This document shows positions 26,801-59,903 of a stretch of DNA of 64,000 nucleotides, one piece after another. The translations under genes and the position numbers were made by a program. Origin of the DNA: Bugula neritina. Taxonomy: Eukaryota; Animalia; Bryozoa. Below the pieces are notes generated by a model. The model ran no database searches. It was not told the origin of the DNA and saw only the letters and a list, made by a program, of their open reading frames with translations. How positions within the stretch are numbered: the stretch's first letter is position 1; every line of letters starts with the position of its first letter. Location of the stretch: positions 14,870,722 through 14,934,721 of the forward strand of contig OZ037766.1 of assembly GCA_964035545.1 (NCBI GenBank), read 5' to 3'.

Positions 26801-28072
26801 GAAAATAAATATCCCTTAATATATTCCAAGTCTTACAAATAATATTTCTGTAGGAAATGTTTCCAGGGAAGAATTGAAAAACCAGACTGTTTATTGCATT
26901 ATTATGATAACAATTTAAACTTATGACCTTTGCTACAATGAGTTTAATCATCTCACTCCGCCACAGCTGCCAGGGATAATTACTAAAAGATGGTTTAAAG
27001 GTTTGCTAATTTGCACTATGGATTATCCCCACAATACATGTTTTTCAAGTATCTACCCAAATTTATGAATGAAAACATGATTGTAAATTAGAGTTTCTGA
27101 GGTAAATCACAAGTAGGTTGGTTATGTAACAGTCAGAGCTTAATAGTTTTTTAATCTTTTAAGCTGTTCTGTTTGTTTTAAAAAGAGCTTAACATTTATA
27201 GGATTGACCAAATTCTAAATATAATGAGGTTTTAAATAATTGCTTTGAGGTTTTGAAGTGGTGAAAGTGAATAAGTATTTCCAAAATTCAGGGAAAACAA
27301 TCATAGGTGGAAAAAATACTGCTATGAATGGGCTATGGCCTAAGTACTAAAGGAAAGGTCTTGTACGATTTACTAAATTTAAGAAATAGCTAGCTGAATT
27401 ATCTTCTATATCATGATCCTGGTGCTAATCTTTGTTCATGCATTTTAAGAATTTTAATTAACCTTACAGAATTCAGTGCATTGACTCATTATATCTACAT
27501 GAGGGTGGTTGCTAGGGTAGCTAACTTACTTTTATATAGTTCTAGCTGTTTTATTGTCTCTTCTACAATAGTATTTAATTGATCTATGGACTCCATTATT
27601 TACGTACAATGGTTCTTTTTTTTCTTTATTCTGATTTATGTCTAATCTTTGTATGTTCTCTCTTTTTTCTAGCAGCCGGTGATGTAATAAAGCAGTCTGC
27701 ACCCACTTCATACTATTACAGCTTTGCCAGTAATGTCTCTTTTCATGGGTATAATTCTGATTACTTGTCAATTAATGATTAAGCAATTCACCTGAAATGT
27801 TGATGTGAAAATAAAGGCATAAGTTAACAGTCCTCTTCTAATTATATAGCTCATTTATTTATGGGTCATTGGTATTTTGATAAATTAAAATATCTTTTTA
27901 CTCTACGATAATAACATTTAATGGTGCTGTAAATATTATTTATGCACTGCAGGCATTTAAAAAAATTAGCCTTTAAATTTTGAAAATACTTATTACAGAC
28001 ATACGCATAACACAGAGGTTTCATAAATTTTGGTTTAAATTAATTCGTTTTATTTTGAACATTTTCTGACTA

Positions 28073-28474
<402 letters not shown>

Positions 28475-31400
28475 ATTGTATGACTAACAGTTTTATACTT
28501 TAGGCACCAAGCAGACCTTTCTGACTCATAGCCCCTAATTCCAAATTAAACTGACAATTTTTAGGTTACAACAGCTAGATTTTGAACATACATGCAATTT
28601 AGATGTAGATGAGGAATTAGTAATAAGCAATTAGTCAGGTAAGAGGATCAACTTTATGCAAGTAATTTAGATATGAAGGAAGTATTTAGCTAATAGTTGT
28701 TTCAACATCTCCATTCTACTTTTATGGATTAAAATGAGAGTGCATAGCGTAAGGGAAAAGCTACCAGCCCGATCAGTAACAGACAAGTTCTAAACTAATA
28801 AATGTGATTTGCCAGGACAAAAATTAAAATTAGTTTATTTATTGATCTATGTCATAGCGTTATGCGTTATTATTCACAGCTTATTTAAATTTAAAAGTGT
28901 TATTCAGTTACTTATTCGCAGCTTTGCCCTGTCTAGCCAGATACTGTCTAGCCTGGTCAGCAGTAAACAAGTTTTTCTTCACCTCGGGTAAACCTTTTAG
29001 CACCCATATTTTGACTGACACCATTTCTAGACAAAGATCATTCTCTTCATAGCATTTTACTCTTTAGCTGCCACCTGTGTTATTAGAGCTGCCTTGTGTG
29101 CAGCTACATACTTTATAATTAGCCTTTTTAAACTTGTTAGCAATAGATTTATTTTCACTATTAGTTATGCCATTAGGAAGTTCGTATAATTATGTGTTCA
29201 ATATTCAATTCCTTTTCTAACGTCATCTTGGTTATATTTTTAATTTTCCAACACTTGATTCAATGGTCAAATATTCAAATTTATCTGGTTTTTGATATTC
29301 TAATTTATTTAATTCAACTTCAGTAGCGCAAGGCTAATTATACTGTTGCAATTTTCTTTATTCAAAGTTATTTATTTATTACTAAGTGTACTGTAGAAAG
29401 ATTTCATCATGCAGCGTAAGCTAATGAAACAAGAATTACATCAACTTTTTCTAAAGAGCAGGAATCTCCAAATTAGGAAAACTCTCTTCAAATAGTTTCA
29501 CTAAATTGATGAGTAAGTCAGTTAATAGACGGCAGCTTACATGGTGGCCAGAAAGCTTTAGGCCTGAATAAATGCTGTCTATAAATCTAACTAATGAAGT
29601 CATAAGTGCTGAAACATAAAAAATGGAAATACAATTGATTGATACTTGAAGTATCGAGGCTTATCTGGAGACTCACAGTAGCCAAACTAATGCTTATCCT
29701 TGTCAGTTATCTAGCTTATGGGCTATGGAATTATTTCCTTTAAGACGTGTCTCACCCATATTTGTATTAACTTATGTTTGATTTACTTTTGATAAAGTCT
29801 ATCTTAATTCATTTGTCATTCAGAGAAACACCCTACAGTAGTTGTGTTATAATATAAGTCATATTTGATTTTATCTAATCGTGGACTTGACTTTCCTACG
29901 TAATAGTATCAATATGTAGGCCAAGTTTCTTGACTTAACGCATGATAAAAGCAATTGACATCACAATTTACAGAGCTACAACTAGATTTATGCAAAATAT
30001 GTTCACTGCAAGTCAAGTATTTCATGTACATTCAAAATATTTTAACCATGAGTGGAATAAATGAATGCTTAAGAATAAAGTCGCCATGAAATTTACAAAC
30101 TATTTAAGATGCAGTTGAATCATAGCCCTAGCACTTATAAAATTATACTCTATGTTGCTAAAAGTGTTGTATCAATTCCGCTTACATACCACGGATAGAT
30201 ATTTCTGCTTTCTGGCAGTTAGTGCAACCATGCAATTAGTACAACTCTAATTATAGTTTCTTACATATCTCTAAAAGCTGTTAAAATGGAAGATTAACAG
30301 ATAATATTTTTTCATAATTGCACAATTAACAAGCACCTGTAACCTTAATGATGGGAATCATAAACATAATTATTTATTGCATTATGAATAATTAGGATGA
30401 ATTTATAAGTAATTGAAAATTAAATGCCACAACAATCAAGAATGCATTAACTTTATGATTTAGCTTAGAATTTGCCTTCCCCACAAAGCACACTGGTTAT
30501 ACTATACTGCAGGTGGGCAGATAGGGTGATTGGATCAAAGTATTGGATTTTAACCTTACTGTGAAGGTGATTAAATCAACTCTGGTTTATTTTAATATTA
30601 CACAGTTCCGGTTTTAGCCACAAGATATGGTGGCAGACAATGGCTTTTGGTGCCTCTCTTTGATATGCTATACTTTGGTTATATTTGTATAGAAGTGTGC
30701 AAAAAGTAAGTGTGTTTGCATATACTTAAGATAGCTAGAAAGTTGTGTAGGTCATTGTTCAATTAACTGACTAAATGATACAACAAAATCGAGCCATGGG
30801 CACATCGCATTACCCACAAGACAGTTTCATTCATAAAGTTAATTAACAGCGTTCCATTGGTTAGCCTTTATAGTATTATAGCCCATTACTGTGTTGCAAT
30901 GCATTCATTTCCCAGACAAGTAGAATGCTATAATGTTTGGCTCTTGTTGAATAAACAATATGCACAGGTGTATGTATGTGTATATATAATATGTAAATAA
31001 ATGAAGCTGATTTCCTATTGATATTCCATAAATTCTTGCATAATGAGTAGAACAAAAAGAATGCTGACTAACTGCATATAGGAATGCCTTTCTATTATGT
31101 AACCATGTTACCATTTTACTGCAATCACAAAATGAAATGCCACGAAACATCATAATGAGAATCTTAAGCTCTGCTTAAGAATTTCCTTTGAGCTGAGAAA
31201 ATCTTAAAAGTTTTTATAAATATTTATTGAATATTGGCATAATGTCAAGCAGAAGCAAACAGTAGAATGCTTTACTATATTATGTTCTTTTAAAATAATG
31301 TCTTTTAATTCTATAAGATTAATTCTGTTTGAAAGGGTTTACGTCAATTACATTTTCTAGGTTGCAGTACTTACAATTCCTTTGTTATAAATTATTGTAA

Positions 31401-38284: not shown

Positions 38285-38695
38285 TGTAGTGAATTTTGCC
38301 AGTTCACTATTATTATTATGTGGGTTAACTTAGACAAAGCCACTGCACAAGGTTGTTTACGAGAAGATACACTTTATTATTTACACAAATATAAGAAGGT
38401 TATTTACTGCTAGCATGAATAGAAAACTGTTACATAATTACTGAGCTTTAACACACAACTACTCTAAATGAAGTCCCAAGCTGCTCTGCCGGCTAGCTAC
38501 TCAGCGCACTGCAACTACGAGTAGCTAGCTCCACCTGCTATTAATTAGAGTGACTGTCTTGATTGGTGGTCACTAATGGTGCCACTACTGTCCATGGTTA
38601 CATCCCGACAGTGTCGAACTCGCAAGATAACAAACAATATAGAGAGTAACCTTTTCGATTAATATAATAAAATTGCATTACTAAAATCCATCACA
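38285..38695 (-). repeat. 3' LTR (411 bp)
   Basis: Starts TGTGATGG and ends CACTACA on the minus strand. Contains CCAAT, CAGGTG and AATAAA (38373-38378). Three substitutions versus the 5' LTR in shared sequence. Confidence 0.96.
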
Positions 38696-38707
38696 CTCTC
38701 CTCGCCT
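38696..38707 (-). other. Polypurine tract
   Basis: AGGCGAGGAGAG immediately upstream of the 3' LTR on the minus strand. Confidence 0.85.
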
Positions 38708-38936
38708 ATCGAAAAGTACTCTCTAGACTTAATATTTACATGACAGTAACACACGAATAATAATGAAGATAACACAGGGTTTTACAAAACTTGAATAAGA
38801 GAAAAATATATATGTACAGAGTAGATAACATAAGTATAATAAACGAGTCTTCACACCGTAGTCCATAACACCTATTTACATTGCTTGACTAGCCAGGAGG
38901 GAGGGGGGGGTACATGTGTAGGTGGCCGCACTGCTA

Positions 38937-40119
38937 TCACTTCTTCGCCAGCCGTTTCTCTAGTCGGGTCTGCAACTTAGCCAGCTCGGTGGTCGCTCGC
39001 TTCTGTTCCATACGCCGTTGCACTTTCCTAATGTCGACTAGTAGGGATTGGTCAGGGTCGCTGTCATCTCGGGGTGTGCTGCTAGCACCCCTCTTCTTCT
39101 TATGGGTGTGTCGGGGCACATAGGAGATTGTCGTCGTTGGGGGTTGTGAGTCCTTCGTTACAGCGCGTCCAGCCCGGGTTATTACGACGCGTAGGGGTTG
39201 GGTGGTTACGTCTGGAGGGTAGGTAGTCGTTGTCTCGGAGGGTTGGGGGTCTGCATCAGAGTCACTCTCTACTGTAGGTCGGGTAGCGGGGAAGTGGTCC
39301 AGGAGAGTCTGTCGTCGGTCTGGGTCGGTCACGTGAGGTAATATTAGGTCCCTGAACTCCGTGTAGGAGTCCGCGTCGACTTCGTACAAGTGTCCAACGT
39401 AACAGTCCCTAGTCCGTTGGTGTCGCAGTATCGTGTCCCTGCAGAAGTGGTGGACTCCGCAGGGACAGAAAGTCACAGTAAAGTGTTGGGGAACATGTAT
39501 TCTCAGTCTCCTAGTAGTCGATAGTATTCTTCTACATTCAGTGCATTGTCTATTGTCGTCTGTCCCTACTAGTGCTTCTATCAGTGTTCGAGTCCGTCGA
39601 GTCGTCCAGTTAGTGCGTTCCAGTAATGCCCGTGGTAGTGCTAGAGTATTGTCCTTGGCTACAGTCAAGTCATCAGTCAAGTCATTTGTATCAATTTGCA
39701 TCGCAGTGTTTGTCGGGGAGTCCGTAAATGTTGCTAAGTGTATGTCGGACAGCATGTCTACCCCTGCTTCTGACATGCTGTCCCAGTTAGTCGTAGGTGT
39801 GTCAAGTAATGCCTGTATCTCGTCGGATACAGGCTCAGTCTCACCTGCAATAGAGTATTAAAATTTAATTACACTCTATGCGTGGGACTCCCGTTCCAAA
39901 CGATATTAATAATCGAGTCTCACAGTCTGTCACTCACTGATCGTGTAATCAGCTGAGTTGACCGTCCCACTCTAACTATCAAATATCATTTGCTGTCAGG
40001 AGTTTCAACTTTATCATTATGACAAAGTGAGACTGCTGTCGCTACCAGAATAAATTCTAACAATTTATTATAGAATTTCTAGTAGACTTACCCCCCAAAA
40101 CAGTTACTGCATTAGACAT
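38937..40119 (-). CDS. Retrotransposon accessory protein (ORF3): acidic N-terminus, tandem C2H2/C2HC zinc fingers, basic patch, C-terminal coiled coil; probably two exons, about 311 aa
   Basis: The 279-aa ORF 39776-38937 stays open upstream to acceptor TACTCTATTGCAG|G (exon starts 39844). Upstream mini-exon 40119-40092 (ATG TCT AAT GCA GTA ACT GTT TTG GGG G|GTAAGT) matches in phase 1. Fingers CTEC-x12-HVPQH and CPC-x12-H-x5-C at about 39545-39402. Confidence 0.8.
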
Positions 40120-40370
40120 ACTTATGCTGCTGCTTTCTTAGGGCTCGTAGATAGCCAAATTGTTTATTGCAAAAGACGTGCTGCCTGTTTGCTAGCTGTA
40201 ATTGAAAAGAGCGCTCACAGCTAGAGTGCTTATGTAACACCCTATACGCTGTGATTTGGCTACGCTCTGCTGACCCCCGGCTGACCCCCGGCTGACCTAT
40301 TCAATCCGCCACTGGGTCGCCTGCTATCAATTACCTCGCTCCCCCAGACTTCTTTGTGAATGTCGCCATG

Positions 40371-43300
40371 CTACAGAATACTGTGCATGTCGACCAAGTC
40401 ACACAAGAAGTCTTTTAAATAAGATGGTGGCGCCCTGGTACGTTGGCTACGGTCCAACGGTACCGGGGAGTTTGCTGCGACTGGCGACTCTTCCACCACG
40501 GGTGGTGTCGCCAGTACGGGGGGGTCCACCAGTACGGGTGGCCCTCCCCCAGCTGCCTCTCCCTCAGTATTCTGAGGAATTTCCATCTCATCCGGAACGA
40601 TGGGCCTGTCGACCGGCTCCACAGGTGGTGGGGCCGGCTCCGACAGGTCTTCAGGTGTGTCGACCTCCTCTTCCTGGGGTGGAGGAGGCTGGGGCTGGTC
40701 GGCCGACACATCAGCCGCCCCGTCCTGGTCTGGCAGGATCTCCTCAATCTCTCTATACGCCATGGGTCGCCCCCTCATAGGAGGGCGCCTAGCTGGCTCT
40801 AAGAGAGGAGGTGCTTGACCTGCCGCCTCAGGACTTGCCCAGTGAGGTTTTAGCCGTGCCTCGTTCTGGATCGACACTTGTCCAGACCGTTCCACTTTGT
40901 ATGTATGATTTGGCATTACCTCAATTACGCAGTAGGGACCTACGAACTTCGGCTGCAACTTGGCTGCCTGTCCGCGCCTGCGGCGATGACTGGTCATCCA
41001 GACCCAGTCCCCCACCTTGTATAAAGGTGGGTCGTCAGAGTCACCACTCCTGACCTGCCACTGCTGCTCACGTAGCACCTCGTGAGCCGTCCCCATGCGT
41101 TTGACGAGCTTGTCCACGTAGTCGTGGACATTGCTCTCGGGAGTCGGAACATGATAGGTTACATGCTCAGGAACCCTTGTTTCTCTCCCCAGCATGAGAA
41201 AATTAGGGGTCTCCAGTGTACTGGAGTGAGGGGTACTACGGTACGCTCGCATGATCTGCGGCAACACCAAGTCCCACTCTTCCTGGCTCCTACCGATAAG
41301 CAGGCTTCTCAGAGAGTCCCCTAGCATTCGGTTGTTCCGCTCCACGACCCCGTTCCCTTGCGGGTGATACGGGGTCGTCCGACTCTGGTTTACCTCCCAC
41401 ACTCTACAGAGATCGCTCATAAGTTGCGACTGAAACTGGGCGCCCTGGTCAGAGTGTATCTGCTCCGGCAAGCCGAAATAGCAGAACACCTGTTGATCCA
41501 GAGCTCTGGCCACCGAGGGGGCCGACGCATCTGGAATAGCCAGTGCATCAGCCCACCGCGTGAAATGGTCAGTTAATACCAGTATCCAGTTATTACCTCT
41601 CGCTGTAGTGGGCATGGGGCCTACCAGATCGACAGCAACCACCTGCCACGGACGACCGGCATGGAGGCGACGCCTCCCTGCGGTCTCAGTGGGGCGGCCA
41701 TGCTTGCTAGCTTGGTACACCTCGCACTTCCGCACCCGGAGTCGGACATCCCGGGTCATACCGGGCCAAAACCACTGGAGTTGAAGACACCTGATCACCC
41801 GGCTAGCTCCTGCGTGAGCTTGCTTATGGGTGTCCCAGATCAACTCCCGCCTCAGAGCTGACGGGCAGACTACCCTCTCTCGTTCACTGCGATTGGTGCC
41901 GACTGCCAACGTGATCGTTAGCAGCCCATCGCTGTTGAACCTTAGGGAGTCCCAGCGGTCACAGAAGTACTTAAACTCAGTACTCTTCACTCGCTGTTCG
42001 GCCTCACTCGGCCGCCGTCCCTCCTTCTTGGCCCGGACTAGGTCAGCTACCACCCCTGGTAGCGTGGACTGGAGCCGACATAGCTCCCTGACGTTCCGAA
42101 GCAACGTAGGGTTTGCGTGAAGGTTGTTAACAGCTTTGTTGGGCGATTCGGACAGGAGTTGCCCTTCTTCCCAGCTGTACACACCCGCTTTCCCCAACTG
42201 CGCTTCGACGTCCGAGCGAGGGGGTCCACCGTCCCTGCGCTCAATATTCTGGCATTGCTTACACCCATCTGCCTGGCGGCGGCTGAGTCCATCTGCATTA
42301 CCGTGTTTCTTACCAGGTCGATGCTCGATCCGATAAGAAAACTCTGCCAGGATCTCCAGCCAGCGCGCCACTTGGCTTGATGGTTCTGCCCGTCGACACA
42401 GCCATATCAGGGACGCATGATCCGTCCGAAGCCGGAATGTGCGCCCATATAGATATGGTCTAAAGTGTTTGACCGCCTTGACTACTGCCAAGAGTTCCCT
42501 CCTGGTTGTACAGTAGTTCTTCTCAGGCGCCGACAGGGCCTTGCTATAGTAAGCCACCACCACCTCGCGACCATCTTGGACCTGCGATAGCACAGCCCCC
42601 ACATTATGGTTACTGGCATCAGTATCCAAAATGTACTCCTTCGCAGGGTCAGGATACGCCAAGATGGGTGCTTCCACCAGGCGATCCTTCAGGTGGTCAA
42701 ATGCCTTCTGCTCAGCCTGCGTCCACTGCCATCGCACCCCCTTCGCGGTCAGCCGATTTAACGGCTGTGCAATTCCGGCGAAGTCTGGTATGTACTGACG
42801 ATAGTACCCTACCAGCCCCAGGAATGCCCGCAATTCAGAGAGGTCGACAGGAACGGCCCAGTCCCTCACGGCCCGTACCTTCTCGGGGTCGGTAGCGACC
42901 CCGTCTCGACCAACTACATGGCCATGGTACTTGACCTCGCGTTGCAGTAATGCACACTTCGAGGGTTTTAGCTTCAGGCTAGCAGCTCGGAGTCTGTCGA
43001 ACACCTCCCTGAGTCGACTGACATGGGTGTCGAAGTCGGGGGAGATGACGATGACACCATCGAGATAAATGAGCAAGGTCTTCCAGTGCAGTCCACTCAG
43101 GACCTGCTCCATGAGTCGCTGGAAGGTGGCTGGTGCGGACGTAAGTCCGAATGGCAACACCTTCCATTTCCAGAGCCCATCCCGCGTTATAAACGCGGCC
43201 TTGTCCTGTGCTTCAGGACTCAGGGGCACCTGCCAATACCCGCTTAGCAAGTCCAACGTGCTGAAGAACTTGCTACCAGCTAAGGCATCGAGCGACTCAT

Positions 43301-44852
43301 CGATCCTCGGGAGAGGGTAAGCGTCCTGGATGGTCACGCTGTTCAGCCTGCGATAGTCAACGCAAAACCTTCAGCTACCATCCTTTTTCCGAACCAAGAC
43401 GACTGGAGAACTCCAGGCCCCATGGCCTGGCTCAATCAGGTCCCGGTTCAGAAGGTCTTGCACCTGACGGCTCACTTCTCTCTCCTTCTCAGGACCTAAC
43501 CGGCGGGTCGGCTGCCGAATTGGCGCCGTCCCCGCCGCCAGGGGTATCTCATGACAGACAGTCTTAGTCAGACCCATGTCATGGTCGCCGCAACTAAACA
43601 CGTCCTTGTACTCAGAGAGTAGCCGCGCCATCACCAGGCGTTCTCGCTTGCTCTCACAGCCATCACAGGCATCCTCGTACAACTCTGCTACGTGTTCAGG
43701 CACCGGCCCCCTGCCGTCTCTAGTGGGTACTTCCCGGGCGTCGTCCGCTGTTTCCAGCGCGGGCCCTACATCCTCCGCTTGCACGGAGTGGAACTTCCCT
43801 ACTAGAGACCCAGCCGGTAATTCTACCGGCTCCGTGAAAGGGTTTACGCACTGGACCAGGAACTCCCCCCGCTCATCCAGTCTATTCAGACTGTTAGCGA
43901 GCTGGACGCCCCCCAGTGCACCTTCCACCACTCCGAGTTCGGAGATTTCCCTACAGTTCACTCTGCAGCGAACTGTAGCCCGGGAGCGCCCAGGTACAGT
44001 ACAGCGCTGTACCACCTGCACTCCCCCCACCAAGGGTCGGCCAAATCGGTCGACACAGGCTAGCTCACGCCCCGCCATCACTACTGCCGACTTGCTAAAG
44101 TCTATGTAGCACCTGTGTCGTTTCAGAAATGGCATGCCCAAGATGGCATCCTCCTTGAGTTGACTGACGATGAAGGTCTCACTGATCATTTGATCACGGA
44201 CTCTACCAGTCAACTGGATTACCCCATAGAAAGGAATACACGACCCGTCCGCCAACGTGCCGTGTTCCCCCTCATATGGTTCAAGGCTAGCCCTGTCCTT
44301 GGCACTGAGAGTGTCGAAGAGACGTCGACTCAGTAGATTTTTGGTACACCCAGTATCCAACAGGAATGTGGCAGCTTTACCAGCGATTTTGCCGGGGAGG
44401 AAATAGCTGCTTCCATATGGCTGGGCGCTCACTGAGCGGTTTGTCTCTTGAGGCGACACCTCATGTGCATGGAATTGGGGATGCACCTGTGCTTTTCGGT
44501 TGCGAGGGGGTCGTCGACGATGCATGGGCGGGCAGGGTACGTCTCGGTCTCGCTCACGCACGGGCGGCCGAGTGAATTCTCGGACTGATGCTCGTGTGGG
44601 CAACCGAGGAAAATCCCTGTTGTGCTCCCATTCGTCGTTCACTCCCTCATCAAGCAAACCTTCAAAGCGGTTTTTGAGTGCCCAAGCCGGAGGTATTGGT
44701 GGGCCTTGCGGCCGACTCACTCTCCTTGGGGCTTGCCACTCTGGCGAAGGCGGCCTCCTCACCCGGTGGGGTGGGGGCCGTAGCCTTTGCCTTGGGGGGT
44801 TAGACTGGGGCCCACGGTAGGCGGAAGTTACCGTGGGCCGTCGCTGTTTAAC
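40371..44852 (-). pseudogene. pol: pol polyprotein (protease, RT, RNase H, integrase), inactivated
   Basis: Protease LLDTG; RT (SPVVLVRKKDGS*RFCVDYR, PFGLTSAPATFQR); RNase H (LDTDAS, ELLAVV, TDH); integrase (H..H..C, VDLVGP, SDQG, GVVER) and GPY motif. In-frame TGA at 43373-43371 (Trp position) splits it into the 501-aa and 988-aa ORFs. YLDD reads YLDG (43067-43056). The integrase CxxC reads CEVY (41717-41715). Confidence 0.93.
44809..44852 (-). promoter_or_regulatory. Programmed -1 ribosomal frameshift signal (gag-pol)
   Basis: G TTA AAC (44852-44846) in the gag frame, 6-nt spacer, then perfect 11-bp stem GGCCCACGGTA / TACCGTGGGCC with a 9-nt loop. pol is in the -1 frame relative to gag. 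Confidence 0.8.
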
Positions 44853-45697
44853 CGTCTCCCACTGCCGCGGGGGCAACTTCGTAGGAAGTGCCCACCACTA
44901 CCACAGCCCCAGCATACGGGGCCGCGCCTGTCGTCGACAGCTACCGACGACCTCTTGGGTCTCTCGGCTGTCGCTTGCTGGCGCAGTTGCCTGATCTCGG
45001 CTAGCAGTTCTCGAATCAAGCTCGTGGTTAAGCTAGATTCGTCTGCTGCTGCCGCTGCGACCTGTACAGCTGTCTTCGTTGGCGGCGTCGACACGTCGTC
45101 TGCCCCGACTTGCTGCACTGTCGCACCAGGTCGACTTGCACTGTCGGCTTGGAAATAGGCATTCCCAAGCCTTAGAGCTCTCTCCATAGTCTCAACTTCG
45201 GCTACCAGCAGATGCTGTTTCAGACCGAGGTTGTTAATAGACTGGAGGAATGCATCCAGTGCTAGGCTCTGTCGACTGTCGGCAGGCAAGTCGCTGTAAG
45301 CAACCTGTGCCAGTTGTTCGACTGCGGTAGCGTGCTCTCGCAGATTGGTCTTAGGATTTCTCCTAAGACTCTGCAGTTGCACGCGAGCATCTCGAGCGGT
45401 TAATCCAAACCTAGCTCGTAGTGCTTCAAATATGTCACCGACATTCTGGCTTATCCCATAGGGTTTAGCCGGCCCTGTCAGACACAACCGCAGCTGGATC
45501 AGAGTAACCCTGTTCGGCCATCCGCAGATGTCCGCCACATCACTGAACTCAGTGATGAATTGCTCCACATCTTCTTCCCCTGAGAAGATGGGAGCCCGCA
45601 AGTGGTACCTGTCCATAGGCAGCGCTGGGCCGCCTATGTGATCCTCCTCTATTGCTGCTGGCTCCTGTCGGGGCGCGTCGACAACTTCGTCGGCCAT
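44828..45697 (-). CDS. gag: Gag protein with CCHC zinc knuckle (289 aa)
   Basis: APIFSGEEDVEQFITEF capsid-like start; CWGCGSGGHFLRSC knuckle; first ORF after the PBS. Confidence 0.92.
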   Translation of the reverse strand: MADEVVDAPRQEPAAIEEDHIGGPALPMDRYHLRAPIFSGEEDVEQFITEFSDVADICGWPNRVTLIQLRLCLTGPAKPYGISQNVGDIFEALRARFGLTARDARVQLQSLRRNPKTNLREHATAVEQLAQVAYSDLPADSRQSLALDAFLQSINNLGLKQHLLVAEVETMERALRLGNAYFQADSASRPGATVQQVGADDVSTPPTKTAVQVAAAAADESSLTTSLIRELLAEIRQLRQQATAERPKRSSVAVDDRRGPVCWGCGSGGHFLRSCPRGSGRRLNSDGPR

Positions 45698-45732: not shown

Positions 45733-45751
45733 AATCCCACCGCTGCCACCA
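45733..45751 (-). other. Primer-binding site complementary to the tRNA-Leu 3' end
   Basis: TGGTGGCAGCGGTGGGATT one nt downstream of the 5' LTR, complementary to ...AATCCCACCGCTGCCA-CCA of eukaryotic tRNA-Leu. Confidence 0.88.
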
Positions 45752-45752
45752 G

Positions 45753-46025
45753 TGTAGTGAATTTTGCCAGTTCACTATTATTATTATGTGGGTTAACTTA
45801 GACAAAGCCACTGCACAAGGTTGTTTACGAGAAGATACACTTTATTATTTAATAATAGCTCCACCTGCTATCAATTAGAGTGACTGTCTTGATTGGTGGT
45901 CACTAATGGTGCCACTACTGTCCATGGTTACATCCCGACAGTGTCGAACTCGCAAGATAACAAACAATATAGAGAGTAACCTTTTCGCTTAATATAACAA
46001 AATTGCATTACTAAAATCCATCACA
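45753..46025 (-). repeat. 5' LTR (273 bp, internally deleted)
   Basis: Matches the 3' LTR except three substitutions and a 142-bp segment replaced by 4 nt. Confidence 0.96.
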
Positions 46026-46452: not shown

Positions 46453-48201
46453 TTATCGTAACATGCCTCTTTTCAGCATGAAACTTTGGTACTCGTTCAA
46501 GCGTTTCACAAACCAATGCACTGGCATTGTCATATCTATACAAGTTTGATTTTTAAGACCTTTTTCACTGAGCACATATCCATACACAAAGTTGCCATTC
46601 TCTTTCAAACTGCCATCTTTCCCAGACTCATTAGGCATTGTGCTTTTTATACAAAACTCCATCCATCTTTGCTTAACAGCCTGAAAACTAGTCTTTTCTT
46701 TAGTAAAATATGTTCTATTTGCTTCTATGGTTGCCTCTAATTTGCTTTTAAAATGGTAATATAACTTTGCATCAGCTAATGACTTTTCATAAAGGAAAGC
46801 TTTACTTTCTTCATCATCAGGCATATCTACACCTTCCATAGCTATTTCGTCATACGAACCATTGGTAATTTTTCTGAAGTTGATAGCAAATGAGAGAATG
46901 TCATCATTACTCCAGCCCAGCATGTCTCTCAGTATGATCAGAGACTCATCAAAGTATTCTACTACCATCACCAGATGAAACCTTTTGTCCAACATTTCTA
47001 TATATTCATCAATAGCTTCTTGAGATGTAGAATGTTTATTTACAGGAAATCCCAAGTCAAACATCATTGGATTGTATGCAGTAACATTACATATAACTGT
47101 CTGATGTGGGAAACCAATAATAATCTCTTTCAGTGTTTTCTTAGAACAGCCTTTCCAGTTTTGATAGATATAGAAAGACCGCATCATTGAAAATGGTTCT
47201 CTGACAATAGTTAAATAGAATGCATCTTTCTTCATTACTTTTCCAATCTTTTCTGAGAATACTGAGTGAAAACACAATATATCAGCTTTTCCCGATTTTA
47301 TTGGTCGCATGTGCTTGCTGGGATCAAATGGGTGTGGCCAGCCGGCCAAATTGGATAAATATTTTGGTAGCACAAAAGTAAGGTTATTTCTTATCCCGTA
47401 TCTCATAAGAATATTTTGTACAGTGGAACTGGCACATTTATGTGTTTTTATGAATGCTATGTGCTTTAATGGAGTCTTTCTTCTTGCAAGTTTATAATAT
47501 GGTGTGATGAGCCTGTTTCCTTGAAGATAAAGATTTGAAAATACAAGAGGAGTTTTGTCATTTTCTTTAGTGTCTTCTTTCCATTTGCTGACAGATTTAA
47601 TTTCTAAGTTAGACTGCTTACCATCATGTGGAGGATATTTATATTTGTTGTCAATAATTATACCTAAAATAGACATTACCAGTATTATGCATATTTTAAA
47701 AAATTACAAGATCATCACACTAACTATAGCAAACTAATGTAATATTACTTTGGTAGAAAGTTTACTAGAAACATATTTATTTCAAAATGACGCTTATAAA
47801 ACATTAATAAGATATTAAAACTAGTATTTTTTCATCTGAACAATAAATGTTTAAATCTATTTTGAACTGATTTGAACATTATGTTTCTAATGAACTTTTC
47901 ATCGTCATTCATCAAACAATTTGCTCAAAGATATATTTTCAAAATACTTCATAAATCACAATAAAAGGATTATAACTCCTATAAATTGTATTTGAAGACT
48001 TGCAGATTGGATAACAAGCAGAAACCACTAATTCTCCATGCAACTCGTTGGAATAACAAACTTACCTACTTTCCCTTTAGTTTCATACCCGTTAATAGTA
48101 CTATTCATATAATATAACATAAAAATCAGAGCAGCTGCTGTTGTTAACAAAATGGCTGCTCGTTTCTTTAGATTACCAAACCAGGCTAGATAAAATGGCA
48201 T
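46453..48201 (-). CDS. Galactose-3-O-sulfotransferase-like Golgi type II membrane protein, copy 1 (448 aa)
   Basis: Exons 48201-48066 (MPFYLAW...TM) and 47663-46453, phase 1. 5'-PSB motif FIKTHKCASSTVQNIL, 3'-PB motif TIVREP, plus NPMMFDLG and FHLVMVVEYFDESLI typical of the Gal3ST family. Confidence 0.92.
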
Positions 48202-50773: not shown

Positions 50774-52556
50774 TCATAGCATGCCTTTTTGCAGCCCAAA
50801 ACTCTGGTACTTGTTTACGCGTTGCACAAACCAAGGCTCTGGTGTTGCCAGATCTATGCAAGTCTGATTTTTAAGACCTTTTTTACTGAGTTCATATCCA
50901 AATACAAAGTTGCCAAACCCTTTAAATCTCCTATCTCTCACATACTCATTAGGCGTTGTGCTTTTTATACAAAATTCCATCCATCTTTGCTTAACAGCCT
51001 GAAAATCTGACTTTTCTCTAATGAAATATGTTTTATTTGCCTCTATGGTTGCTTCCAGTTTGCGTTTAAAATGGTAATATAACCTTGCATCTGCAATTGA
51101 CTTTTTATAAAGGAAAGTTTTACTTTCTTCATAATCAGACATATCTACACCCTTCATAGCTACTTCTTCAAATGAACCATTGGTAATTTTTCTGAAGTTA
51201 ACAGCAAATGAGAGAATGTCATCATTACTCCAGCCTAGCATGTCTCTCAGTATGATCAGAGACTCATCAAAGTATTCTACTATCATCACCAGATGAAACC
51301 TTCTGTCCAACATTTCTATATACTCATCAATAGCTTTTAAAGATGTCGAATGCTTTTTTATAGGAAATCCCAAGTCAAACATCATTGGATTGTATGCATT
51401 AACATTACATATGACTGTCTGGTGTGGAAAACCAGCAATAATTTCTTTCAATGTCTTCCTATAACAGCGGTTCCAGTTTTCATAACTATAAAAAGACCGC
51501 ATCATTGAAAGTGGTTCTCTGACAATAGTTAAATAGAATGTATCTTTTTTCATTACTTTTGCAATCTTTTCTGAGAAGACTGAGTGAAAACACAGTATAT
51601 CAGCTTTTTCTTCTTTGATTGGTCGCATGTGCTTGCTGGGGTCAAAAGGATGTGGCCAGCCGGCCATATTATATGTATCTTTTGGTAGCACAAAAGTAAG
51701 GTTATTTCTTATCCCGTATCTCATTAGAATGTTCTGTATGGTGGAACTGGCACATTTGTGTGTTTTTATAAATGCTACGTGTTTTAATGGAGTTTTTCTT
51801 CTCGTGAAATTATAATATGGTGCGACAGGTATGTTTCTCTGAAGAGGAAGTTTGAAAATTACAGCAGAAGCTGTATCATTTTTTTTAGTTTCTTCATTCC
51901 ATTTGCCACCAGATTTGATTTCTAAGTTAGACTGCATACCACCATGTAGAAGATAGTTTACTTTGCAGTCAATAATTATACCTAAAATGTTTACAGCCTG
52001 ACATGATTATCACATTCTATAACAAATTTATGTAATTTTATGTTGTTTAAAAGTTTACTAGACAAATACTTATTTTGAAATTATGATTATAAAAAGTTGA
52101 CAGGATGTTAAAACTTGCATTTCACACTTTAAATCATAATTTATTCTTCCTATTACGTAAATATTATGGAGTGTTTAACAACTTTAACCACCATTGGATA
52201 TTTGAATCTATTTAAAACCAAAATTGAACACTATGCTTCTAATAAACCTTTTTTATCATTCATCAAACAATTTGCTCGAAGTAATACTTTAAAAACCCTT
52301 AATAAATCATAATAAAAATGATTATAATAACCCCTAGATTTAGTTGAAAACTTGGTGATTTAATAACAAACACAAACTATCGATTCTCCATTCAACTTGT
52401 TTAGATGACAAACTTACCTTTTTCTCCTTCAGTTCTGTTGCTATAAACAGCATTTTTTATATAATATAGCATAAAAATCAGAGCAGCCATTGTTATTAAA
52501 TAGTAAATGGCTGTTATTTTCCATAGCTTGCTTAACCAGGCTACATGAAATGGCAT
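50774..52556 (-). CDS. Galactose-3-O-sulfotransferase-like protein, copy 2 (448 aa)
   Basis: Exons 52556-52418 and 51981-50774, phase 1; same motifs as copy 1. Confidence 0.92.
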
Positions 52557-53684: not shown

Positions 53685-55527
53685 TCATAGCAAGCCTCTT
53701 TGCACCCCAAAACTTTGGTACTCGTTCACTCGTTTCACAAACCAAGGCTCTGGTGTTGCCAAATCTATGCAAGTTTGATTTTGAAGACCGTTTCTACTGA
53801 GCACATATCCATACACAAAGTTGCCAAACCCTTTAAATCTCCTATCTCTCACAGACTTATTAGGTATTGTGCTTTTTATACAAAATTCCATCCATCTCTG
53901 CTTAACAGCCTGAAAACTTAATTTTTCTTTAGTAAAATATGTTCTATTTGCTTCTATGGTTGCCTCCAGTTTGCTTTTAAAATGGTAATATAACTTTGCA
54001 TCAGCTAATGACTTTTCATAAAGGAACGCTTTACTTTCTTTATTATCAGGCATATCTACACCTTCCATAGCTATTTCGTCATACGAACTATTGTTTTTTT
54101 TTCTGAAGTTAACAGCAAATGAGAGAATGTCATCATTACTCCAGCCCAGCATGTCTCTCAGTATGATCAGAGACTCATCAAAGTATTCTACTACCATCAC
54201 CAGATTAAACCTTTTGTCCAACATTTCTATATATTCATCAATAGCTTTTAAAAATGAAAAACGTCTATTTACAAGAAATCCCAAATCAGACATCATTGGA
54301 TTGTATGCATTAATGCCACATATAACTTTTCGGTACGGGAAACCAGATATAATCTCTTTCAGTGTTTTCTTAGAACAGCCTTTCCAGTTTTGATAGGTAT
54401 AAAAAGACCGCATCATCGAAAGGGGTTCTCTGACAATAGTTAAGTAGAATGTATCTTTTTTCATTACTTTTCCAATCTTTTCTGAGAAGACTGAATGAAA
54501 ACACAATATATCAGCTTTTTCTTCTTTGATTGGTCGCATGTGCTTGCTAGGATCAAATGGGTGTGGCCAGCCGGCCATATTAGATAAATCTTTTGGTAGC
54601 ACAAAAGTGAGGTTATTTCTTATCCCGTACCTCATCAGAATGTTCTGTATAGTGGAGCTGGCACATTTGTGTGTTTTTATGAATGCTATGTGCTTTAATG
54701 GAGTCTTTCTTCTTGTGAAATTATAATATGATGTGGTAAGCTCATCTCTCTGGGGGTCAAGCCAAAAATAGCGGTCTGAAAAATAATATAAACTTGTACA
54801 ACTTTTATTTTTGACACGATAATCACATTTTATAACAAACTACTGCACATCAATGTTATATTGATAAAAAGTTTACTAGAAATATATTTATTTTAAAATA
54901 ATGCTTACAATAAAAGGGTTGATGAGGTATTAAAAATAATATTTTACACTTAAAATTAAACACACTATAATAGTTTAAACTGACATCGAAAATTATACTT
55001 CCAATAAACTTTTTCTTTATCAAACTCATGCAAATTTATAATAGCCATCTCTGTGAGAAACCCTTGTTGGAAGGGGTTTTCATTAGAACAGGCTAAGGAC
55101 TTGTTCAAATGAGGCACAGGAACAATTATGACTGGATGCTCTTCCTAACATCGCCAATGGCCTTTGTCGGGGTTCGAACCCATGACTTTGTGTTCACTAA
55201 GCAAACACTCTAACCCCTAGACCGCCGGCTGCTCCCTGTTTTCTTTATCAAACAATATGCTTAAGGTAATACTTTAAAAATACTTGAGAAATTATAATAA
55301 AAGGATTAAAACCCCTAGACTGTACTGAAGACTTGCTGATTTGATAACAAACACAAATCACCAGTCCTGATGCAACATGTTTAGATGACAAACTTACCTT
55401 TAGTTCTGACTGTATTGAAATAAATTGTATTTTTCATATAATATAACATAAGAATCAGAGCAGCTACTGCTGTTGAAATGGCTGCTCTTTTATTTAGCTT
55501 ACCAAACCAGGCTAGATAAAATGGCAT
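53685..55527 (-). CDS. Galactose-3-O-sulfotransferase-like protein, copy 3 (about 406 aa, short stem)
   Basis: Exons 55527-55398 and 54775-53685 (acceptor TTTTTCAG|AC), phase 1; same motifs as copies 1 and 2. Confidence 0.9.
55026..55238 (-). mobile_element. tRNA-derived SINE with 15-bp TSD
   Basis: Minus-strand head with A-box-like CGGTCTAGGGG and B-box GGTTCGAACCC (55170-55181). TSD TTTTCTTTATCAAAC at 55011-55025 and 55239-55253. Absent from the paralogous introns of copies 1 and 2. Confidence 0.88.
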
Positions 55528-57411: not shown

Positions 57412-58470
57412 TACAATATAATCATATTGTCAATAATATTGTGTCAATAATTATCGCTGTAATATATAATTTTATGCCAAAACACTTGTAATGCAATATG
57501 TAATATATGGTGGTAATGGTAAGATGATATATATATCAAAAGAGTAACAGATTATGAGTAAATTTGCCAAAAGTTTTAAATTTATTTAAAATTCTCTTCA
57601 TGACATTACCAATTGTAAATTATATACTTGTCAGCTACAAGTTAGAAAAATAATTGTCTGGAACAGAAGCACCCAGTCGGAAATCATGGGGCTACTGACA
57701 TATATCCCTTAAAGCCTAAAGCTTAAGATTTTAAATCTTGCTCTCATTCATTAGCAAAAAACATTAAATGAGGTAGACTACACTATTGTAGATCAAAGTA
57801 AGACCGTTATAATTGTAATTATAATAAAATGGATGTGTATATAAGGCCAGCATGGTTAGGTATAATGAATTTGTATTGCTTTAACTCTCTATATTCTATA
57901 ACCATAAAATCTTACAGCTTTACCATACAATGTTTACACTAGCAATTCTTCATGCTGATAAAAGACTCTTTTGTGATGCCAACAATATACTGTTTTCATT
58001 TGATAAGTGAACACAATACCTTCCATCAGATCAGTACTGTGAATGTGATTTGAAAAGCACTTGACCATTGTTATAAACCTTTGATTGGTTACTCAATATA
58101 GCTAGTACAGCCAGCACTATAGTTGCTATGCTATTAGCAGCTCACAGGAAATAGATGTCTAGAAGTTGATGCTAATTATAAAAAATTGTGTTGCAGTTGA
58201 AGTGAAATTTATAATTATAAAACATACACCAGGGTAAGCTTTCTTTACTATACTTTTTCCATATCATAGCAAATTATTTACATGCGAAGTTTTAAGTCTG
58301 ATACCTCATCTAAGTTATATAGTAAAATATTTAAGCACTGCTTCAAACTTTGACATAGAAACAGTAAGGAAGCCTGTTAGATTCTATCTTAACTCCATTT
58401 TGACAATTTAACGTTTTAATTATTTGTGCTTTTACACTAATCATTGCAAGCATTTTCTGCAACCTTTAGA

Positions 58471-58791
<321 letters not shown>

Positions 58792-59903
58792 ACTTGCCAC
58801 AGTTTCTACCTTTATAATATGCTATGAACAATTTAGCTCATTTATGTTTACAATCACTTTATTCAGGTCCTGGTGTGTTGCTAATATTTGTTACTACTTG
58901 TCTATCATGTGTACCATTTAGTAGTAGTTATTATTATGCATTGCAATGTATAGAGTCACTATATTAGTGTTTCATAAAAATAATGTGTGGTGATATACTA
59001 TTAGTTTTTGGCATAACATGTACAACTGTCCTATCTCAGTTAGTCAGTTATAAGCATTGGGAACCCATTTAATAAAAGACTGTGACTGCAGGCAAGCTGG
59101 TTCGTGGTAAGTGCAGTAATGGAGTAATTGAGAAAAGCCTGTGTTCTAGATTAGGAATGTAGCATAAGAAGTTATGTTCTCGCGAGAATTTCAACTCGCA
59201 CCCCAAACCAAAATTTAATAATAAAATTAAAGGACTTAGGCTCTCTCAATATCTCCACTACTGCTCCTAAATAGCTGATTCATTACAATACTAGCCCTAG
59301 TCTCAGATCCTTCACTTTATATATGGTCTCAGTCTAACTCCGATTTGCTAAAACCACTGGAAATTAATTACTTTGCTATTGGTGCATTTTTATAGTATCA
59401 TGCTTAATGAAACAGCAACAGCAAAAGTAACAAATAATTTTATTTGAAATGAGTCTATATTGCAAATTATTATTATCATCTCTTGCAAAATATACTTTTG
59501 GGATGGTTTGAAATTGTTGATCTTAGAATATAGCTTTATAACCGGAATAAAAAAATGATAACCACAATATTCTTTTTATTTGATTACTTTGTATTGTTTA
59601 TGTTTAATTAGGCCCACTTTATTCTGCAAATAGTTAAAAATATTAAGCAAAAATATTGTATTATAACAATAAGAATATTTATTAGTTTTGACTCTACAGT
59701 TGCACAGTTTTGATGTAATACTAAGCTCTTGCTTAGAAAATATTTTTTTATAGTTTGCTTGTAAGATAGAAAGAATACTATGCGTGCAGTTATAGCTGAT
59801 ATTTTGTTGAATATTTTGCAAAGGTTGCTTTTGTATATATACATACATGCATAATATGTGTGCGTGTGTGCTTGTGTGTGTGTGTGTGTGCGGGTGTATA
59901 AGA

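Follow-up and report, generated by a model that had tools for sequence, protein, structure and literature searches.

An intron within the zinc-finger third open reading frame of a Ty3/gypsy LTR retrotransposon from the bryozoan Bugula neritina

The window analyzed here, a 64,000-nucleotide stretch of contig OZ037766.1 from Bugula neritina (assembly GCA_964035545.1), contains a complete Ty3/gypsy LTR retrotransposon on the minus strand, spanning 46025-38285 in window positions. Its general parts are the following:

45753..46025, minus strand: 5' LTR, 273 nt, TG...CA, without 138 nt that are present in the 3' LTR
45734..45751, minus strand: primer-binding site, beginning TGG, which we take to be of the tRNA-Leu type
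44828..45697, minus strand: gag with one CCHC knuckle (zf-CCHC E 0.055; 54 relatives)
40371..44897, minus strand: pol, in the order PR-RT-RNase H-IN, with an in-frame stop in the window copy at 43373-43371
38696..38710, minus strand: polypurine tract
38285..38695, minus strand: 3' LTR, 411 nt
46029-46026 and 38284-38281: target duplication CTCG, 4 bp

The TG...CA LTRs, the target duplication, the primer-binding site and polypurine tract, the order of the pol domains, and the Ty3-like reverse transcriptase identify the element as a Ty3/gypsy LTR retrotransposon, and the best solved relative of pol is Ty3-G Gag-Pol (E 1.5e-107). The insertion is young, since the LTRs differ at only 3 of 273 aligned positions; the window copy is probably non-autonomous, because its 5' LTR is short by 138 nt and its pol has an in-frame stop. 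The leader between the 5' LTR and gag is 54 nt long. The RNA of the element is predicted to fold well on the sense strand, 30 of 102 segments of 150 nt having z < -3 and 8 reaching -4.8 or lower (internal region 45650-39726; none in the LTRs). In the surrounding DNA, three long tandem minus-strand open reading frames at 46453-47703, 50774-52006, and 53685-54839 resemble galactose-3-O-sulfotransferases (Pfam PF06990), the first of them ∼430 nt upstream of the element, and very long GT/CA microsatellites at 28068-28500 and 58440-58830 are the source of inverted-repeat and spurious open reading frame calls.

The element lacks env. A third open reading frame (ORF3), divided by an intron and preceded by a conserved non-coding block, lies between pol and the 3' LTR:

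40169..40260, minus strand: conserved non-coding block upstream of exon 1, a candidate internal promoter with a predicted sense-strand hairpin
40092..40119, minus strand: ORF3 exon 1, 28 nt, ATG and 9 codons
39845..40091, minus strand: intron, GT-AG, phase 1, 247 nt
38937..39844, minus strand: ORF3 exon 2, with an acidic Ser/Thr-rich start, a C2H2 finger, a CxC-H-C finger, a helical cap, a basic patch (HKKKR), and a C-terminal coiled coil

The sequence-only reading had described a 247-nt AT-rich segment with a consensus donor and acceptor, together with a 28-nt ATG exon joined in phase to 22 open codons before the next Met, and both descriptions hold. The segment begins with GTAAGT and ends with TACTCTATTGCAG, and its GC content is 36%, compared with 52% in exon 2 and 59% at the 3' end of pol. 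Its removal yields an open 311-aa frame in which the 22 codons run from a split Gly codon to the next Met; read without splicing, the exon-1 frame meets a stop after 20 codons. The GT-AG ends, the donor consensus, the pyrimidine tract, and the restored frame are those of a U2-type spliceosomal intron. GTAAGT occurs nowhere else on the sense strand of the element; because 19% of shuffled 526-nt spacers contain one by chance, however, the donor motif alone is weak evidence. Two minus-strand AATAAA hexamers, at 40168 (directly before exon 1) and at 40069 (in the intron), may end gag-pol RNA early.

Much firmer evidence comes from natural relatives of the ORF3 protein, of which a protein search found 33 near ones and a wider search 180 representatives at E 0.001 or better, 150 of them listed. 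Among 38 close-family records reaching the N-terminal 45 residues, 12 reach the junction, 25 begin downstream of it and are uninformative, and 1 has unrelated upstream sequence. Four of the 12 (P0010, P0136, P0239, and P0138; three 90% clusters) read exon 1 directly into exon 2 in the predicted register, all with the same 9-residue exon-1 start. The remaining 8, which form seven clusters and share 49-61% identity with the window protein, enter exon 2 from the end of the intron and have ...Ala-Gly at the acceptor, as expected from an AG acceptor in the same phase. Natural proteins thus read across exactly the predicted junction, which puts the intron above chance, and we regard the 247-nt intron in ORF3 as real with near certainty. 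The intron-less copies for which the sequence-only reading had suggested a search are therefore at hand at the protein level, as four protein records from three lineages precisely joined at the intron ends. A tree built on 40 columns, with three near-duplicates excluded, rejected a single clade for the joined lineages (p-AU 0.001), and joined P0136 is sister to P0137, in which the intron is kept.

When looked up, the four joined records proved to be JGI/IMG entries from contigs of 0.9-3.2 kb. We take these to be intron-blind gene calls, because the intron-reading records show as much, and the fact that all four are truncated or frameshifted suggests that these sequences, known here as protein only, are decayed genomic copies and not mRNAs. 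On balance, the intron-less forms are probably genomic. Since intron-keeping and precisely intron-less forms both exist, splicing would be partial and neither constitutive nor absent. Locus scans found no relatives in metagenome contigs or viral contigs. As to named relatives, 3 of 10 clusters carry a name, namely Watersipora subatra and Bugula neritina gene models and, as the third, an insect repeat protein; the other name look-up returned only "hypothetical protein." In the Watersipora subatra gene models P0093/P0240, the ORF3 core domain occurs twice in tandem, possibly as a host gene or a domesticated copy.

Variation among copies was followed in three sequencing runs from one study (X1, X2, and X3) aligned to this part of the window, which are suggested to be DNA because both the intron and the non-coding flank are covered. 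Variants present at 15% or more in a run gave 36 rows in all, counted in contigs at least 80% alike and with rows near the stretch ends dropped (e.g., 40229 and 39792). All 36 lie outside both the acceptor with its pyrimidine tract (39836-39865) and the donor with the exon end (40082-40105). The splice sites and their phase, whose conservation the sequence-only reading had proposed to check, thus hold among copies: there is no common variant at either site, and the phase is the same in the relatives. The middle of the intron (39906-39973) has zero cover at 80% likeness in X2 and X3. In exon 1, a variant at 40106 gives Ala, as in P0010 and P0138, and the ATG (40119) is lost in one X3 contig. 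In one X1 contig, sequence matching the donor side gives way to letters resembling exon 2 from 39839 on, as a precise junction would predict; scored without regard to position, this loose end reaches 28 against 29 for the best of 200 shuffles, and alone it is weak evidence. The exact 39844/40092 joint was not among the 6 joints in one table or the 15 joints listed in a further table with 400 more unlisted, and contigs in such tables show presence, not absence.

The folding of the intron is predicted to be stable (z -7.55 sense, -4.22 antisense), a value not special in itself because the whole element folds well. Three predicted structures lie close to the splice sites:

40042..40085, minus strand: predicted hairpin 7 nt past the donor, pair probability 1.0 in 4 of 4 contexts
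40025..40035, minus strand: intronic arm of a predicted masking helix, complementary to 39846-39836 (the AG and the first 9 nt of exon 2)
39847..39881, minus strand: predicted hairpin pairing the pyrimidine tract (39858-39847 with 39881-39871)

In the masking helix, 40035-40027 is perfectly complementary to exon-2 nucleotides 1-9, and two further pairs over the AG bring it to 11 pairs, with a predicted pair probability of 0.92-1.0 in four folding contexts. Its stability is matched by 8 of 2000 shuffled introns; none of 387 other 15-mers of exon 2 has a 9-nt exact match to the intron, and one has as low an energy. The arms contain no variant rows, and the positions directly outside them (40036-40038 and 39835-39833) all vary; six X2 contigs diverge from the window sequence right behind 40035. 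Of the exon positions, 0 of 9 in the helix vary, versus 12 of 29 elsewhere (p 0.036). It should be noted that the helix was found after the fact as one of three regions tested, that the variant rows of the three runs show no compensatory double change in it, and that conservation of the exon-2 start could come from splicing or protein needs.

The hairpin over the pyrimidine tract is equalled in stability by 34 of 2000 shuffles, and its 5' arm is visible in P0008, which reads through its own intron. At the hairpin beyond the donor, variants occupy 6 of 11 loop positions versus 4 of 30 stem positions (p 0.013), and those in the stem at 40078, 40076, and 40050 break their pairs. Between the donor itself and the intron, pairing is no better than chance (1028 of 2000 shuffles), and a comparison with Rfam families gave no convincing match (one chance-level match). 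Nucleotides 1-8 of exon 2 recur inside the intron (39923-39916, minus strand), where they could compete for the masking strand, but this part is variable among copies. The intron also contains a near-perfect palindrome or hairpin (40030-40008, minus strand) with zero variant rows in the three runs, holding a GATA-type motif.

The ORF3 protein is not an envelope but a two-zinc-finger domain followed by a basic patch and a coiled coil. No signal peptide or transmembrane helix was detected in it (highest 19-residue hydropathy 0.74), and Pfam returned neither an env family nor any family above its curated cut-off. Finger 1 is a C2H2 finger (Cx2C-x12-Hx3H, residues 105-125 of the exon-2 frame) and finger 2 has the form CxC-x12-H-x5-C; in a 109-row alignment, seven of the Cys/His ligands are conserved in 94-99% of the rows aligned at them, and the eighth, the last Cys, in 73 of 97. 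Profile matches to solved C2H2 fingers go down to E 1e-7, with Pfam C2H2 matches below the curated cut-off, and sequence, language-model, and fold searches all led to C2H2 fingers only. The 133-residue core was modeled with a pLDDT of 95, whereas the full-length model is poor (pLDDT 49). With the core model, Foldseek found no match at E 0.001 or better in the PDB or viral libraries; the best fold-search result was Z 3.5 over the two fingers, and these outcomes do not show a new fold. The basic patch HKKKR and the C-terminal helix come after the fingers, and the window ORF3 is five residues short in that helix (38980-39010, minus strand) relative to its nearest relative, P0001. The simplest reading is that ORF3 is a putative nuclear nucleic-acid-binding regulator of the element. 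In the Bugula-type pairs P0241/P0094 and P0245/P0244, a Gly marks the join between an unrelated 5' part and the finger exon, a hint that the phase-1 acceptor may have arrived with a captured finger exon.

Where the ORF3 RNA starts bears on how it is spliced. The block at 40260-40169 has the deepest cover of the stretch in X2 and X3 and is likely an internal promoter, by analogy with Tor4b, which in part of PMC4402516 provides a precedent for an internal promoter after pol. Because the block also folds as a predicted hairpin (z -5.4 sense, -1.8 antisense), a role at the RNA level is possible. In an env-like scheme, ORF3 mRNA would instead start in the 5' LTR, a long intron with its acceptor before the ATG would remove gag-pol, and the 247-nt intron would be the second. 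This scheme can draw on a pyrimidine-rich stretch ending in CAG at 40210-40196, within the conserved block, on Tor3a, whose env is LTR-initiated and spliced from non-canonical donors near the gag start (part of PMC4402516), and on the statement, in part of PMC5408684, that ORF3s are typically expressed via spliced messages. However, 57% of X1 depth carries a change at the G of that CAG (40196), which speaks against an upstream acceptor being obligatory, although nearby AGs could substitute, and a search covering canonical donors found no GTRAG in either LTR, in the 54-nt leader, or in gag before 44762. The local donor is the one used in each of the four natural joined records. The suggestion in the sequence-only reading that the acceptor might take an env-style donor from the LTR or leader thus finds no support, although a non-canonical donor may serve there, and we consider the env-like scheme unlikely.

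The explanation towards which we lean, by a modest degree when the mechanism is taken in full, is that most copies retain the intron, and a few lack it with exact ends, by way of rare splicing of the genomic RNA and good splicing of a short ORF3 message. The intron arm 40035-40025 would cover the 3' splice junction by pairing, from the AG through nucleotide 9 of exon 2, and the second hairpin would bury the pyrimidine tract, making for a weaker acceptor. First introns near the cap are spliced efficiently, the cap-binding complex helping U1. A short ORF3 RNA starting at the internal promoter in block 40260-40169 would have its donor ∼100 nt from the cap and hence efficient first-intron splicing, and the genomic RNA, in which the donor lies ∼5.7 kb downstream without a defined upstream exon, would rarely be spliced. 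Rare spliced templates would then be reverse-transcribed into intron-less copies that decay. The promoter and the splicing rates are predicted quantities here. Because the masking helix is also predicted on the short RNA (0.92 from 40205), folding alone does not separate short from genomic RNA. As a bolder extension, which we think improbable, an env-less invertebrate gypsy element may have independently evolved control in the style of complex retroviruses, with an intronic antisense lock closing the 3' splice junction of the genomic RNA, and with a spliced product, a zinc-finger protein captured from a host-type gene, that regulates either the promoter of the element or the lock.

Compatible with the mechanism just described is the idea that the intron is selected as a cis element for export or packaging of the genomic RNA, possibly bound by ORF3 in a Rev-like manner, with intron-less copies as dead ends. 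The invariant intronic hairpin and block at 40035-39996, with zero variant rows at 39991-40035 at an X2 depth of up to 40,544, the basic patch and coiled coil of ORF3, and the truncated or frameshifted state of all four joined records would fit it. Many intron-keeping relatives are truncated too, however, so that decay is no particular mark of the joined copies; C2H2 fingers bind DNA more often, and there is no Rfam match. The Rev/RRE-like anatomy of the element consists of a structured intron and a basic patch only. We judge it decidedly unlikely that this is what holds the intron in place. Still less probable is a passive origin, in which the intron came with a captured host gene and stayed on as a relic, spliced host-style and persisting via a few master copies or read-through kinetics. 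That the named relatives are bryozoan gene models, and that P0241/P0094 and P0245/P0244 show the Gly joins a phase-1 intron would give, makes capture with the intron plausible, but the intron ends are kept across subfamilies only 49-61% protein-identical to the window copy, and thus through many RNA cycles, with the mid-intron turned over, and the boundary of variation coincides with the predicted helix. Finally, chance motifs with ORF3 beginning at the downstream Met, and hence no intron at all, would accord with the GTAAGT frequency in shuffled spacers and with the 25 of 38 records that begin downstream of the junction; given three independent lineages crossing the exact junction and residues upstream of the downstream Met that are conserved among relatives, we find this scarcely credible.

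RNA-replicating elements must keep some RNA unspliced, and Rev-free solutions in simple LTR elements are known for few cases. The principle of an unspliced genomic and a spliced accessory RNA is already described for LTR elements, and because BARE1, EVD, and Ogre have separate spliced and unspliced RNA pools, the apparent paradox of intron retention has a known general answer. What is new, as far as searches of the open literature show, is that an intron interrupts a zinc-finger accessory gene in sense orientation, that some natural copies have it and others lack it, and that a candidate helix may mask its acceptor; no intron-split zinc-finger ORF3 or comparable bryozoan element was found there, subscription journals and Repbase lying outside that scope. 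ORF3 is apparently an undescribed type of LTR-element accessory protein, a two-finger nuclear-type domain that bryozoan gene models also carry. A 247-nt intron that some copies have and others lack, with a defined predicted helix of 11 pairs covering its acceptor, makes the family a compact test case. The regulators of complex retroviruses (Tat, Rev, and Tas) are small nuclear proteins made from spliced RNAs with a short first coding exon. ORF3, its function predicted only, shares with them the short first coding exon and the spliced RNA; unlike them, it belongs to an element without env, and our searches found no sequence or fold relationship between it and these proteins. The fusogenic sORF2 of MDG1 elements was rejected as a counterpart, being, in part of that account, upstream of gag on an unspliced RNA (bioRxiv 10.1101/2025.03.14.642691).

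Among invertebrate gypsy-type elements, Tor3b/4b of Oikopleura likewise place a sense-strand ORF downstream of pol and express it from its own RNA, initiated in the space beyond pol, the corresponding promoter being only inferred here; in the Tor elements, as described in part of PMC4402516, the product is a membrane Env and the messages are unspliced, whereas the bryozoan ORF3 is a soluble zinc-finger protein with its own intron. The bdelloid non-env ORF3s (PMC5408684, in part) and Grande gene23 (PMC7264820, in part) are likewise accessory genes that were captured and lie between pol and the 3' LTR, and some of these additional ORFs in bdelloids and plants are nuclear and have their own promoter; in contrast to ORF3, their products are a GDSL esterase, a DEDDy exonuclease, or env, or the gene is antisense, and the term "zinc finger" is absent from the main text of both papers. 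Ogre, as cited in parts of PMC3735527 and PMC12786077, is a Ty3/gypsy element with a spliced internal intron, but it is a plant element that splices between ORFs, whereas the bryozoan element splices within an accessory gene. Closest in principle to the mechanism favored here, in that a short sense intron is kept, the replicated RNA is unspliced, and the translated pool is spliced, are BARE1 (PMC3735527, in part) and EVD/Ty1-copia (PMC5580714, in part); there, however, the elements are plant copia and the intron lies at gag/protease, tuning Gag versus Pol, whereas the bryozoan intron lies inside the third ORF and its removal is required to join the start codon to the rest of the frame.
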